This document shows positions 35,892-39,317 of a stretch of DNA of 64,000 nucleotides, piece by piece. The translations under genes and the position numbers were made by a program. The stretch is taken from contig JADJNF010000004.1 of the NCBI GenBank assembly GCA_016714445.1, forward strand, positions 183,861 through 247,860, written 5' to 3'. Positions within the stretch are counted from its first letter, which is position 1; the number at the start of each line of letters is the position of its first letter. This stretch comes from Saprospiraceae bacterium. Lineage in GTDB: Bacteria > Bacteroidota > Bacteroidia > Chitinophagales > Saprospiraceae. The notes under the pieces were generated by a model. The model was not told the origin of the DNA. It made no database searches and saw nothing but the letters and a program-made list of their open reading frames with translations.

Positions 35892-36959
35892 ATGTTCAGA
35901 AGAATCGTTATAAGAGTTTTATTATCTCCGTTTGCACTTTTGTATGGATTTATCATTTCCTTTGTAAATCTCTCTTACGATATAGGTTTGCTGAAAGCAT
36001 CAAAATTTAGTGTGCCCGTCATAGGGATCGGAAACTTAAGTATAGGCGGGGCCGGAAAAACTCCTCATATCGAATATCTGATAGAAATGCTCAAAGACTA
36101 TATAGACATTGCCACTCTGAGTAGGGGTTACAAAAGGCAAACCAAAGGATTCAGATATGTACAGCCCCATGATACTGCTTTGACCGTGGGTGATGAACCT
36201 CTCCAATACAGAAGAAAGTATCCGGAAATAGTAGTATCTGTATCTGAAAGCAGAGCATATGCAATCCCTCAGATCCTCCAGCAATACCCAAACACACAGG
36301 CCATCCTTCTTGATGATGCATTTCAGCACAGGAGTGTAAAACCAGGACTCAATATATTACTTACACCTTATGATATGTTATTTACTGATGATTATTTGCT
36401 GCCGGCAGGAAGACTTAGAGAATGGAGGTCAGGGTATAAGCGGGCAGACATTATCATTGTTTCAAAATGTCCCGCCGTTATGGATATTCCAAAAAAACAA
36501 AGTATCACTAGTGCAATAAACCCGGCAAAATATCAGCGTATATATTTTTCGTACTACGAATATGGTTATCCTTATAATTTTTTTCAAACTTCACAAAAGA
36601 TTTCTTTAGATAAAGAGCTCGATGTCATTTTGCTCAGCGCCATAGCAAATACGGAATATTTGTTGCAATATCTGGATGCCAATGTGAAGTCAGTCAGTGA
36701 GATAGAATATGAGGATCATCACCTTTTTGACCATCACGATATTGAAAAAATATTAAAAGTTTTTCAAAATCATAGCAGCCAAAGGAAATTGATACTCACG
36801 ACCGAAAAAGATGCCATGAGGCTTGAAATGCACAATGATGTCTTAATGGCCAATAAAATTCCGGTCTATGTTCTACCGGCAAAGGTTAAGTTTCACTTTG
36901 ATGAAGGTAAGGCGTTTGAAGATGATATCAGAAAGTTTCTTTTGGATTTTGAAGTATAA
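35892..36959 (+). CDS. lpxK: Tetraacyldisaccharide 4'-kinase
   Basis: P-loop GIGNLSIGGAGKTPHIEYL. Typical LpxK length and TM N-terminus. Confidence 0.85.
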   Translation: MFRRIVIRVLLSPFALLYGFIISFVNLSYDIGLLKASKFSVPVIGIGNLSIGGAGKTPHIEYLIEMLKDYIDIATLSRGYKRQTKGFRYVQPHDTALTVGDEPLQYRRKYPEIVVSVSESRAYAIPQILQQYPNTQAILLDDAFQHRSVKPGLNILLTPYDMLFTDDYLLPAGRLREWRSGYKRADIIIVSKCPAVMDIPKKQSITSAINPAKYQRIYFSYYEYGYPYNFFQTSQKISLDKELDVILLSAIANTEYLLQYLDANVKSVSEIEYEDHHLFDHHDIEKILKVFQNHSSQRKLILTTEKDAMRLEMHNDVLMANKIPVYVLPAKVKFHFDEGKAFEDDIRKFLLDFEV

Positions 36960-37267
36960 GATATAATTAATGTACTATTTGAATGAATACAGTTACTTTT
37001 GCATCAGACGGCCATAAATGTTAATGCTGAAGTAAATCAATACATGGAATTCGGTCTTTTAAATGTGATGCAAATTGCCGGAGCTGTAGGTATTTTTATC
37101 TATGGTATGAAGCTCATGAGTGAAGGAATACAACGAGCAGCAGAAATCAACTTAGAAATACACTCAGCAATCTGACCAATAATAAATGGCTAGGGTTTTT
37201 AACAGGATTTATTGTCACTGGACTGATCCAATCTTCTTCAGCCACCACTGTAATGATCGTTAGTTTT
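36821..37267 (+). repeat. Long direct repeat DR1 flanking the IS1634-family element (lpxK 3' end, intergenic, Na/Pi transporter 5' pseudo-fragment)
   Basis: About 99% identical to 38870-39317. Contains a 1-nt deletion relative to the intact transporter start (gcagcagaaatc vs gcagcaggaaatc). Confidence 0.8.
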
Positions 37268-37282
37268 CCTGACTTGTCCCTT

Positions 37283-38482
37283 TTAGTGCGGTGGAAATAA
37301 TTTGGCCACCAGTTTGGCCATGTTTTGAGTTTTCTCTGCCTTTACGGTGACGGTTTTATGCGTTATATGATTTAGGATTTGGCCATCTACCATTTTTTTA
37401 GATTCATCTAAGAACTTTCTTATCGATACACCTGCCTTTATTTCGATGTGCTTTGAGATAACTAAAGCCATAAAACATATCAGTATGTGAAGTTTTATAG
37501 GTTGTTCCTTAAAATGGAATATAGGTCTGGTTCGCAGGTCACCTTTAGACACTCTAAATGCCTGTTCTATTTTATAAAGTTCGTGGTAACGTTCAATTAT
37601 GGTTTTATTGTCCGCTATATTTTCTTCTAAGCTTGTGTAGTAGCCTTTGATGCCGAGTAGCTTTTTAGTTTTTTCGATAAGCTCTTCGTTAAGTTCCAGT
37701 TTTTGATCATTGGTCTTCGTAAATTTTAGTTTTCTGCTCTTGGATGGTACTTCTACTACCTGCTTTGCTTTTTCGATTTGTTTGTTCATTTCATACAAAT
37801 CTTTGCGGTATCGTACAGAAGAATAACTGCAAATCAAATAACCTAATTCCGTCTTTATCCTGATACTTTTACCATCTTGTCTGACGATTTGCTCGTCTAT
37901 TGTTCCAAGGAGCTTTATGGAGAGATTACCCAATCTTGCGCCTACTATATAGTTGATTTCGTTTTGATTTAAGTGTGTAATGTTTTCTGAACTAATCATT
38001 GCCGCATCTGCTACTACTGTAAATTCTTTGACCTTGTTTCTTCCGATAAAATTTTTTATGGTGGGAATAATGGTATGTCCTTCAAAAGTATTTCCACTGA
38101 ATATTTCAAATGCGATAGGAAATCCTTCTTTGGTAACCATTAGTGCCACTAATATTTGTGGTTGCTGAGATTTACTGTCTTTTGAAAAGCCGTTCTTTCG
38201 TAGCTCGTCTTCTTCGAAGGTCTCAAAGTAAAGTGTTGTCACATCGTAAAAAACAATGTCAAAGTTGAACGAATAATGCTCTTTTGCAAAATCTACAACG
38301 CTCATCTCTACCTTTTCTTTTAAATCAACGCATTGTGGAGCTATCTTGTAATAGCTTTTACGGCTATGTTTTATGCCAAAAAACTGTTCCATCAGTTCTA
38401 GAGAACGAAGTTTGGATGCTGGTTCAAAAATTCTCATGGTTACTAAATCATTCAATAAAAGCGGCAGCTCAGCAAACCCCAT
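37283..38482 (-). CDS. IS1634-family transposase, C-terminal about 400 aa (DDE domain)
   Basis: YDVTTLYFE, VVADAAMISSEN, YHELYKIEQAFRVSKGDLRTRPIFH (IS4-superfamily YREK region). Confidence 0.75.
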   Translation of the reverse strand: MGFAELPLLLNDLVTMRIFEPASKLRSLELMEQFFGIKHSRKSYYKIAPQCVDLKEKVEMSVVDFAKEHYSFNFDIVFYDVTTLYFETFEEDELRKNGFSKDSKSQQPQILVALMVTKEGFPIAFEIFSGNTFEGHTIIPTIKNFIGRNKVKEFTVVADAAMISSENITHLNQNEINYIVGARLGNLSIKLLGTIDEQIVRQDGKSIRIKTELGYLICSYSSVRYRKDLYEMNKQIEKAKQVVEVPSKSRKLKFTKTNDQKLELNEELIEKTKKLLGIKGYYTSLEENIADNKTIIERYHELYKIEQAFRVSKGDLRTRPIFHFKEQPIKLHILICFMALVISKHIEIKAGVSIRKFLDESKKMVDGQILNHITHKTVTVKAEKTQNMAKLVAKLFPPH

Positions 38483-38829
38483 TTTATCCTGTATGGCACT
38501 AATCTGTTGGTAGAAAAATTATATTGAACTCCAATAAAGGTACAATGACTGAGATGAATTAATCTATTTGGACTTTCGTCGGGAAAAATGGATAATTGCT
38601 TAGAAAAGTCTTTGATCCATTCTTCGGCTAATAATATTAGCTCATCCATCTCGGCTTCAGTATGAGCAGATCCTATATGCTGCAAAATGGTTCGTTTGTT
38701 GTTTTGATACCGTACAATTTGAACCGCTTTGGCTTTTGATGCGGTGTTTACTACCCTAATTTTCATGACAAAATACCCCTTTAGTGCGGTAAATTTATTG
38801 AAAAAAATCATTATTATGCTGATAATCAA
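38452..38829 (-). CDS. IS1634-family transposase, N-terminal about 115 aa in a different frame
   Basis: MKIRVVNTASKAKAVQIVRYQNNKRTILQHIGSAHTEAEMDELILLAEEW typical N-terminus. One A missing from an A-run (ataaaatgggg) would restore ...PYRIKMGFAELPLL... Confidence 0.6.
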   Translation of the reverse strand: MIISIIMIFFNKFTALKGYFVMKIRVVNTASKAKAVQIVRYQNNKRTILQHIGSAHTEAEMDELILLAEEWIKDFSKQLSIFPDESPNRLIHLSHCTFIGVQYNFSTNRLVPYRIKWGLLSCRFY

Positions 38830-38869
38830 ACATTTAAAAACGCACTAAATTTACTTGAGACAAGTCAGG

Positions 38870-39317
38870 GCTTGAAATGCACAATGATGTCTTAATGGCC
38901 AATAAAATTCCGGTCTATGTTCTACCGGCAAAGGTTAAGTTTCACTTTGATGAAGGTAGGAAGTTTGAAGATGATATCAGAAAGTTTCTTTTGGATTTTG
39001 AAGTATAAGATATAATTAATGTACTATTTGAATGAATACAGTTACTTTTGCATCAGACGGCCATAAATGTTAATGCTGAAGTAAATCAATACATGGAATT
39101 CGGTCTTTTAAATGTGATGCAAATTGCCGGAGCTATAGGTATTTTTATCTATGGTATGAAGCTCATGAGTGAAGGAATACAACGAGCAGCAGGAAATCAA
39201 CTTAGAAATACACTCAGCAATCTGACCAATAATAAATGGCTAGGGTTTTTAACAGGATTTATTGTCACTGGACTGATCCAATCTTCTTCAGCCACCACTG
39301 TAATGATCGTTAGTTTT
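38870..39317 (+). repeat. Long direct repeat DR2 (lpxK 3' pseudo-fragment 38870-39008, intergenic, intact transporter 5' end)
   Basis: See DR1. The lpxK fragment encodes ...LEMHNDVLMANKIPVYVLPAKVKFHFDEGRKFEDDIRKFLLDFEV*. Confidence 0.8.

Follow-up and report, generated by a model that had tools for sequence, protein, structure and literature searches.

Insertion sequences (IS) of the IS1634 family, formerly the IS1549 family, typically generate AT-rich target duplications of 5-6 bp (PMC2266710), and a duplication of 6 bp has been measured experimentally for ISGka5 (PMC8024623). The account of the family in the 2008 review names two exceptions with long direct repeats, of 8-514 bp, namely IS1634 of Mycoplasma mycoides subsp. 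mycoides SC (Vilei, Nicolet and Frey 1999, cited in PMC2266710) and IS1549 of Mycobacterium smegmatis (Plikaytis, Crawford and Shinnick 1998, cited in PMC2266710). A comparable outcome, with direct repeats of tens to hundreds of bp and a single copy in the related empty site, has been described for inserted restriction-modification units (Furuta, Abe and Kobayashi 2010, PMC2853133). Our literature search on whether IS1634-family elements make long duplications in Bacteroidota yielded no source other than the 2008 review (PMC2266710). Here we analyse a 64,000-nucleotide stretch of a Saprospiraceae genome (assembly GCA_016714445.1, contig JADJNF010000004.1, positions 183,861 to 247,860; hereafter the window), in which an IS lies between two long direct repeats at the boundary of lpxK and a Na/Pi transporter gene. 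The best explanation, to which we assign a probability of roughly 0.88, is that an IS1634-family element with DDE transposase chemistry transposed into the lpxK/transporter junction, duplicated 448 bp of target in doing so, and later decayed.

The anatomy of the locus is well defined (Table 1). Perfect 11-bp terminal inverted repeats, CCTGACTTGTC and GACAAGTCAGG, bound the 1602-bp IS, and direct repeats of 447 and 448 bp abut it exactly on either side, as a first-pass annotation made from the sequence alone had described. The two repeat copies are 98.9% identical, differing by four substitutions (36910, 36912, 36913 and 37086) and one single-base indel (37142/37143), and their outer boundary is ambiguous by 1 bp owing to a shared G. 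The whole window contains two perfect matches to the 11-bp terminus, both of them IS ends (chance expectation 0.45 with up to one mismatch), no second copy of the IS and no other repeats longer than 108 nucleotides. The G+C content of the IS (35.5%) is that of the window (35.4%). From position 1 to 1602 the IS aligns end to end with elements of 1599-1605 bp from dozens of Bacteroidota genomes, and the termini are kept in all relatives in the alignment. Just inside both inverted repeats, at unequal distances from the tips, lies a motif TTTAGTGCG(G) (37278-37292 and 38842-38850), of which the two subterminal copies are likewise conserved in all relatives; these are probably transposase-binding sites. 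An extra copy of the motif, CCCCTTTAGTGCGGT, is found on the plus strand (38776-38790) in the leader directly upstream of the transposase start codon.

The empty sites to which the first-pass annotation had looked for confirmation were found in four independent metagenome contigs (L001-L004; JGI 3300056788, Logan SRR26425191, ENA ERZ28613981 and ENA ERZ27239170), which share 95-99% nucleotide identity with the window. In each, lpxK, the 84-bp spacer and the transporter gene follow one another without an IS, and the segment is present once, as 449 bp that can be aligned with 36820-37267 as well as with 38869-39317; none carries the segment duplicated without the IS. The duplication therefore came with the insertion and is a true target-site duplication. 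Six-way alignment of the two window copies with the four empty sites identifies five derived substitutions that both copies have in common and that every empty site lacks; one copy therefore arose from the other within this lineage. Where the two copies differ, the derived state is in all five cases found in the orphaned half and the ancestral base in the half attached to a functional gene, as expected if purifying selection maintains the functional half while the orphaned half decays neutrally. Divergence between the copies is 1.1%, compared to 1-2% between the window and the closest strain, L004, which implies that the insertion is not recent.

In the mechanism that we propose, the two IS ends, through their 3'-OH groups, would have joined opposite target strands at separately chosen sites 448 bp apart with a 5' stagger, the one cut falling 139 bp ahead of the lpxK stop codon, the other 225 bp past the start of the transporter gene. 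Host filling of the two long single-stranded gaps would then have duplicated the whole 448-bp interval. Widely spaced strand transfer followed by gap repair is what we infer here from the known chemistry of DDE transposases. Because the duplicated interval spans a gene boundary, each side kept one complete gene, lpxK on the left and the transporter gene with its own upstream region on the right; the long duplication regenerated both neighbours and the insertion thus disrupted nothing. After insertion, the orphan fragments and the transposase gene would have decayed, the latter by loss of one nucleotide in a T6 run. The element is most likely an immobile relic.

Table 1. Features of the insertion locus, in coordinates of the 64,000-nucleotide window
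Feature	Position	Strand	Length	Remarks
IS1634-family insertion sequence	37268-38869	transposase on -	1602 bp	
Terminal inverted repeat CCTGACTTGTC	37268-37278		11 bp	at 3' end of transposase gene; followed by subterminal motif TTTAGTGCGG
Terminal inverted repeat GACAAGTCAGG	38859-38869		11 bp	at 5' end of transposase gene
Direct repeat, copy 1	36821-37267		447 bp	functional lpxK 3' end, 84-bp intergenic region, orphan transporter 5' fragment
Direct repeat, copy 2	38870-39317		448 bp	orphan lpxK 3' fragment, intergenic region, functional transporter 5' end
Transposase open reading frames as found	38452-38829 and 37283-38482	-		split
Transposase N-terminal part, original frame	38519-38766	-		ATG at 38766; residues 1 to ~83
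Frameshift site	38514-38518	-		A5 on + strand (T5 on coding strand); six in the five closest relatives and in L085
Transposase C-terminal part, shifted frame	37283-38513	-		catalytic domain with D175, D254 and E401
lpxK (tetraacyldisaccharide 4'-kinase), intact	35892-36959	+		TIGR00682, 149.9 bits (cutoff 91.95); Pfam LpxK, 236.5 bits
Na/Pi cotransporter with PhoU domain, intact	39093-40793	+	566 amino acids	TIGR00704, 222.8 bits (cutoff 210.1); Pfam Na_Pi_cotrans and PhoU
Orphan transporter 5' fragment	37044-37267	+		first 224 nucleotides of gene; stop at 37173-37175 after 1-nucleotide deletion
Orphan lpxK 3' fragment	38870-39008	+		three clustered substitutions (38959, 38961, 38962); GKAF to GRKF

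Assignment to the IS1634 family, as proposed in the first-pass annotation, is borne out by the transposase. When repaired to 494 amino acids, the protein matches the NCBIfam profile NF033559 ('IS1634 family transposase') at 286.9 bits (cutoff 100) with a single match that extends over the break (residues 24-475 of 494; profile positions 2-467 of 483), and the next best profiles, those of IS1380 and IS1182, stay far below their cutoffs. Pfam DDE_Tnp_1, the IS4-related DDE catalytic domain expected of the family, matches residues 171-436 (44.2 bits, cutoff 23). The candidate catalytic triad, assigned by motif, consists of D175 (FYDVTT), D254 (VVADAAM) and E401, with a D254-E401 spacer of 147 amino acids that is long, as in the description of the family; around the glutamate, the catalytic-site motif reads Y394-H-E-L397-Y-K-I-E401-x6-K408, in which leucine replaces the arginine of the YREK signature, a residue that members of the family usually lack and that distinguishes IS4 proper from them (PMC2266710). 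The length of 1602 bp is within the 1500-2000 bp of the family, and the ends, CCTGACTT..., fit the pattern C-----YT with C at position 1 and TT at positions 7-8. Over 6000 homologues of the transposase were retrieved, the best of which are uninterrupted proteins of 494 or 509 amino acids from Saprospiraceae metagenome-assembled genomes (MAGs) and other metagenome contigs. Several of these are named IS1634 family transposase, and the intact 494-residue relatives reach ~92% identity. At the DNA level, the best relatives are copies in Saprospiraceae metagenomes and MAGs (L085 at 99.1%, L005-L009 at 86-91%). Two features depart from the family description. The 1-nucleotide deletion splits what should be a single transposase open reading frame (ORF), and the duplication is 448 bp long in place of 5-6 AT-rich bp. 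Given that the relatives have single ORFs, the split reflects decay of the window copy and not the type of element. By every other feature tested, the element is a member of the IS1634 family. It does not have the features of IS4 proper, for which a complete Y-(2)-R-(3)-E-(6)-K signature and a duplication of ~9-12 bp are characteristic: the R is replaced by L and the duplication is 448 bp.

Both minus-strand ORFs of the split transposase are present as the first-pass annotation had listed them, and its proposal to restore one A in ATAAAATGGGG does yield a continuous frame; the lesion, however, lies elsewhere, in the A5 run at 38514-38518. Compared with the five closest copies (1603 bp each), the sole indel is a T missing from a T6 run at IS position 351, after codon 83 and 32 nucleotides upstream of ATAAAATGGGG. 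With the T6 run restored, the peptide becomes ...GVQYNFFYQQISAIQDKMGFAELPLL..., in agreement with the conserved FFY(Q/R)QIS(V)IQDKMGF of the relatives, and identity to the proteins P0001-P0006 is 90-92%, as opposed to 88-90% when A is added in ATAAAATGGGG. Loss of an A in ATAAAATGGGG was rejected as the lesion: AAAA is equally found in the relatives, and the peptide that this repair gives, ...NFSTNRLVPYRIKMGF..., departs from the family in nine wrong residues. The N-terminal part starts at the ATG that is equivalent to the MKIRVV with which most 494-residue homologues begin; within the C-terminal part, a start codon is available only for the 399-amino-acid ORF. The overlap of the two ORFs might also be read as a programmed -1 ribosomal frameshift that regulates transposase production, as in IS1 and IS3 elements, and they would indeed be fused if tRNA-Lys slipped by -1 on A_AAA in GATAAAATGGGG. 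We consider this scarcely credible. In an alignment with 14 relatives, the intact copies carry the identical AAAA in GATAAAATGGG and yet encode single uninterrupted proteins of 494 or 509 residues; IS1634-family elements are described with a single transposase (PMC2266710); fusion at GATAAAATGGGG would replace the conserved FFYQQISxIQD with nine wrong residues; and the lesion is a simple loss of one nucleotide relative to all close copies. Evidence of decay also comes from the sister copy L085 (5613-7215 on JGI 3300056850 contig Ga0558718_08793). This copy, identical to the window IS at 99.1% over 1603 bp, occupies a different locus between an HTH_5 gene and the gene of a giant secreted protein, where it is flanked by a perfect 61-bp direct repeat. 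Its T6 run is intact and its transposase carries a nonsense mutation of its own (TGG to TAG at IS position 252). Two nearly identical copies with different inactivating lesions indicate an IS lineage in decay, and the cluster mates of the transposase include many truncated products.

How unusual the duplication of 448 bp is was judged from a survey of species-representative genomes, in which relatives with amino-acid identities of 61-90% turned up at 80 loci in Bacteroidota (Saprospiraceae, Chitinophagales, Bacteroidales, Pedobacter, Daejeonia and others). At most loci, the window IS aligns end to end with conserved termini CCTGACTTGTC. Repeats were analysed at the 50 loci having at least 300 nucleotides on each side. 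Direct repeats touching both inverted repeats are present at 36 of them, range from 15 to 840 bp with a median of ~117 bp, and are 100% identical in 25 cases. The shorter half measures 15, 19, 25, 29, 30, 38, 46, 64, 66, 68, 69, 88, 88, 92, 107, 107, 112 and 113 bp, the longer half 120, 123, 138, 165, 179, 196, 211, 213, 217, 232, 248, 260, 309, 430, 496, 500, 684 and 840 bp. One further locus (L043) has an interrupted repeat, and at 13 of the 50 a direct repeat was undetectable (L009, L015, L029, L030, L040, L041, L042, L044, L051, L052, L063, L068 and L070); these copies could be insertions of opposite polarity that deleted the target, products of recombination between IS copies, or cases with repeats longer than the 4-kb flank. 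Duplications of 5-11 bp, which includes the family norm, occur at none of the 50 loci. Pseudo-insertion controls placed in related loci gave a terminal repeat of at least 12 bp in 0 of 44 cases, and chance falls far short of explaining the repeat in the window. Among the surveyed hosts, Daejeonia sp. YH14, a complete isolate genome, has a repeat of 496 bp. Contig L010 (JBGSOH010000367.1, 2153 bp, from a Saprospiraceae MAG, k = 141) consists of the IS tail, 409 bp and the IS head, with its first and last 141 nucleotides overlapping. It closes on itself in the assembly graph as a cycle of 2012 bp, the length that an IS with a repeat of ~409 bp would give, although it may also represent a tandem or circular form.

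The behaviour extends beyond these close relatives. Six distant ones with ~30% identity, carried by plasmids in other phyla, were examined as well. In five of the six, from Cytophagales, Campylobacterota and Actinomycetota, CCTGA... termini are directly adjoined by long repeats: 33 bp in Persicobacter, 74 and 104 bp on two Rhodococcus plasmids, 58 bp in Actinomyces oris, and 682 bp (1705-2386 and 4121-4802, 99.85% identity) on plasmid pCNAC48 of Aliarcobacter cryaerophilus (L088). The element of pCNAC48 has 31.5% amino-acid identity and ends CCTGAGTTTCTCA, and its repeat duplicates part of a Crp/Fnr regulator gene, such that two Crp/Fnr coding sequences are annotated on either side. Variable long repeats at independent insertion sites of the same type of element are thus found among the relatives, and the empty-site comparison adds the window. 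The survey shows long, variable duplications to be routine for a widespread IS1634-family set in Bacteroidota, Campylobacterota and Actinomycetota, and the 448 bp of the window fall in the upper part of the relatives' normal range. The first-pass annotation had called such duplications a known trait of the whole IS1634 family; in the light of the 5-6 bp norm (PMC2266710) this was overstated, and it is correct for the subgroup to which the window element belongs.

These data also bear on a different origin of the repeats. Two IS copies in the same orientation 448 bp apart, on sister chromosomes or transiently in the population, could by unequal homologous recombination leave one IS and a duplicated interval. 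The final structure at a single locus would be the same, and IS-flanked segmental duplications are known from IS1634-rich Mycoplasma genomes (PMC3053259). Nonetheless, so rare an event as a double insertion would need to have happened repeatedly, at 36 of 50 related and five of six distant loci; every repeat in the surveyed copies abuts both inverted repeats exactly and has no short duplication within; repeats of 15-30 bp are too short for the recombination route; and the window holds no second copy of the IS. We regard such recombination as very improbable, and transposition with duplication of the target as the origin of the repeats.

Both ends of the element appear to choose their target with a simple preference. 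Read on its own strand, the base directly outside the inverted repeat is T in 91% of 100 junctions (background 30%) and the preceding base is C or T in 94%, and reconstructed empty sites present the same YT pattern (Y, pyrimidine). As the repeats reach right up to the IS, the YT bases come from the target, and this is a target preference and not element sequence. The repeats are more AT-rich than their loci (35.1% compared to 39.2% G+C, p = 5e-4), and their lengths display no 10.5-bp periodicity (Rayleigh R = 0.11, p ~0.6). The survey accordingly constrains the duplication mechanism by a YT preference at each end and the absence of helical phasing of repeat length. On crude ORF calls, both cut sites fall within one ORF in 8 of the 36 insertions, compared to 69% for random placement (p = 1e-8), 19 of the 36 span a gene boundary, as does the window insertion, and 9 are intergenic. 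The gene-boundary bias may arise from selection for gene-sparing insertions or from preference for AT-rich intergenic DNA, between which these data do not separate. We tentatively suggest, as a proposal with the odds somewhat against it, that the window element belongs to a large cross-phylum IS1634 subgroup with CCTGA... termini for which long duplication is the only mode of insertion, the two ends attacking independently after YT at sites ~15-840 bp apart. If true, insertions with a 5' stagger would duplicate the interval, spare a gene boundary inside it and hence persist, while the ~26% of copies that have no repeat could be opposite-polarity events that deleted the interval. The 2008 review called the duplication mechanism unexplained, and this would supply a concrete model of it that can be tested.

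Several points weigh against our interpretation of the locus. For variable long duplications, no mechanistic model had been proposed as of the 2008 family review (PMC2266710), and the strand transfer suggested here is our own inference. Of the two junctions in the window, the one at 37267/37268 follows TT, as is typical, but the one at 38869/38870, where the transposase gene has its 5' end, is atypical in following ...AAGC and not YT. Strings across the two filled IS/repeat junctions had no match in the metagenome collection, so that the insertion rests on one assembly. Lastly, both 1-nucleotide deletions (T6 to T5 in the transposase gene, GG to G in the orphan transporter fragment) are homopolymer contractions in DNA that is repeated in the genome, and if the source, probably a MAG, was built from long reads, errors of this type can outlast polishing in repeated regions and both could be consensus errors.

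An assembly artefact, such as the joining of different strains' lpxK-transporter regions to the two sides of an IS with multiple copies, would account for the unmatched junctions, and the identity of the transporter protein to that in a Saprospiraceae MAG record is in keeping with it. Two strains are, however, incompatible with five derived substitutions that both copies share and four other strains lack. The repeats meet the inverted repeats with single-base precision, an equivalent arrangement is found in complete isolate genomes and in plasmids (Daejeonia sp. YH14 with 496 bp; Aliarcobacter, Rhodococcus and Actinomyces plasmids), and the cycle length of L010, from an independent short-read graph, fits an IS with its 409-bp repeat. 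We therefore hold an artefact to be extremely improbable. Less far-fetched, though still unlikely in our judgement, is that the insertion is real and the transposase intact, possibly active, the missing T and the missing G being uncorrected homopolymer errors. Each of the two indels shortens a homopolymer by one base and lies in multi-copy sequence, on which polishing with short reads is least dependable, and the source appears to be a MAG. Yet over ~12 kb aligned with L002-L004 the window has no coding-region indel, and the indels that occur are intergenic or the one in the orphan fragment; the four substitutions between the repeats make the insertion old enough for decay; and the independent inactivation of L085, together with the many truncated cluster mates, points the same way. 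Transposition of an IS1634-family element with duplication of 448 bp, followed by decay, is thus retained as the reading of this locus.

The genes on either side fit an insertion without damage. As the first-pass annotation had stated, lpxK at copy 1 and the transporter gene at copy 2 are intact; both are full length and match their families. The lpxK product of 355 amino acids equals in length that of the empty-site contigs, and the last 139 nucleotides of the gene lie within repeat copy 1, where the tail retains the ancestral AGGC; the G at 38959 in the orphan fragment is also polymorphic in L002. The intact transporter gene retains 223 bp of its native upstream sequence, and its protein is identical to MBK7806599.1 (Saprospiraceae MAG) and to those encoded in L001-L004. 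Look-ups of exact proteins found these matches for the 566-amino-acid transporter with ATG start, and none for lpxK, the 581-amino-acid transporter ORF with TTG start or the 399-amino-acid transposase ORF. The orphan transporter fragment carries a private A-to-G change at 37086 (I to V) and the contraction of GG to G at 37142/37143, which is the 1-nucleotide deletion noticed in the first pass: one G is missing relative to copy 2 and all four empty-site contigs. Both copies of the duplicated spacer contain, 43 nucleotides before the transporter ATG, a sequence TACTTTTG that fits TAnnTTTG, the -7 promoter box of Bacteroidota type (36994-37001 and 39043-39050, plus strand). The putative box of copy 1 would transcribe into the IS, antisense to the transposase gene. 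Boxes of this type are weakly informative, with 114 found in the window against 91 expected, and a sigma-70 promoter scan of the locus gave no excess (9 found, 9.4 expected from shuffles).

Other repeats and RNA-like sequences in the window were recorded separately. No Rfam family matches the window at gathering thresholds. A full-length match to YrlA (Y RNA-like; model positions 1-114 of 114) at 32793-32908 on the minus strand is sub-threshold (43.3 bits, gathering threshold 69, E = 1.8e-7), has a tRNA-like portion, and lies just upstream of a Band_7/SPFH gene (31395-32606, minus strand). An intergenic repeat of ~230 bp occurs twice, 3.5 kb apart and with 83-95% identity, at 31152-31330 plus 31850-31957 and at 34769-35000, and also in L001 (3682-3860). 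The first copy seems to be interrupted by ~530 bp. The repeat is matched by no Rfam family and may be a MITE-like element (miniature inverted-repeat transposable element) or a regulatory region. A 66-nucleotide direct repeat with 98% identity, GGATTTTCATAATT.CTGATTTTTATGAAATG..., is found at 49934-49999 and 53161-53226, 3.2 kb apart.

For this genome, the finding amounts to an ordinary, old and probably dead IS insertion. Its annotation should not call the orphan lpxK 3' end and the orphan transporter 5' end genes, and should treat the transposase as a pseudogene with a frameshift at 38514-38518. Software for IS detection that expects duplications of 2-14 bp will mis-delimit elements of this kind. 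While the locus alone is of modest value, the survey result, that is, routine long repeats, the YT preference and the gene-boundary bias, is of more potential value.

Compared with the described systems, the window element resembles IS1634 in belonging to the same family by transposase profile, in having a single DDE transposase without the YREK arginine, and in its long variable repeats, the 448 bp lying within 8-514 bp; it differs in its host, which is from Bacteroidota as opposed to Mycoplasmatota. IS1634, at ~1.87 kb, is longer than the 1602 bp of the window element. With IS1549, the former name-giver of the family, the element shares long direct repeats on insertion, and the host phylum is again different. 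The actinobacterial relatives of the window element in Rhodococcus and Actinomyces (~30% amino-acid identity) have CCTGAC... termini in common with it and repeats of 58-104 bp. ISGka5 and the bulk of the family share the family assignment and DDE chemistry with the window element, but make short duplications (6 bp; 5-6 bp as the norm) of a size that none of the 50 relatives has. The restriction-modification units, which lack transposase and inverted repeats, resemble the window locus in outcome alone. Long duplication upon insertion is thus an already known, rare behaviour, represented by IS1634 and IS1549, to which the window element adds a case from Saprospiraceae.

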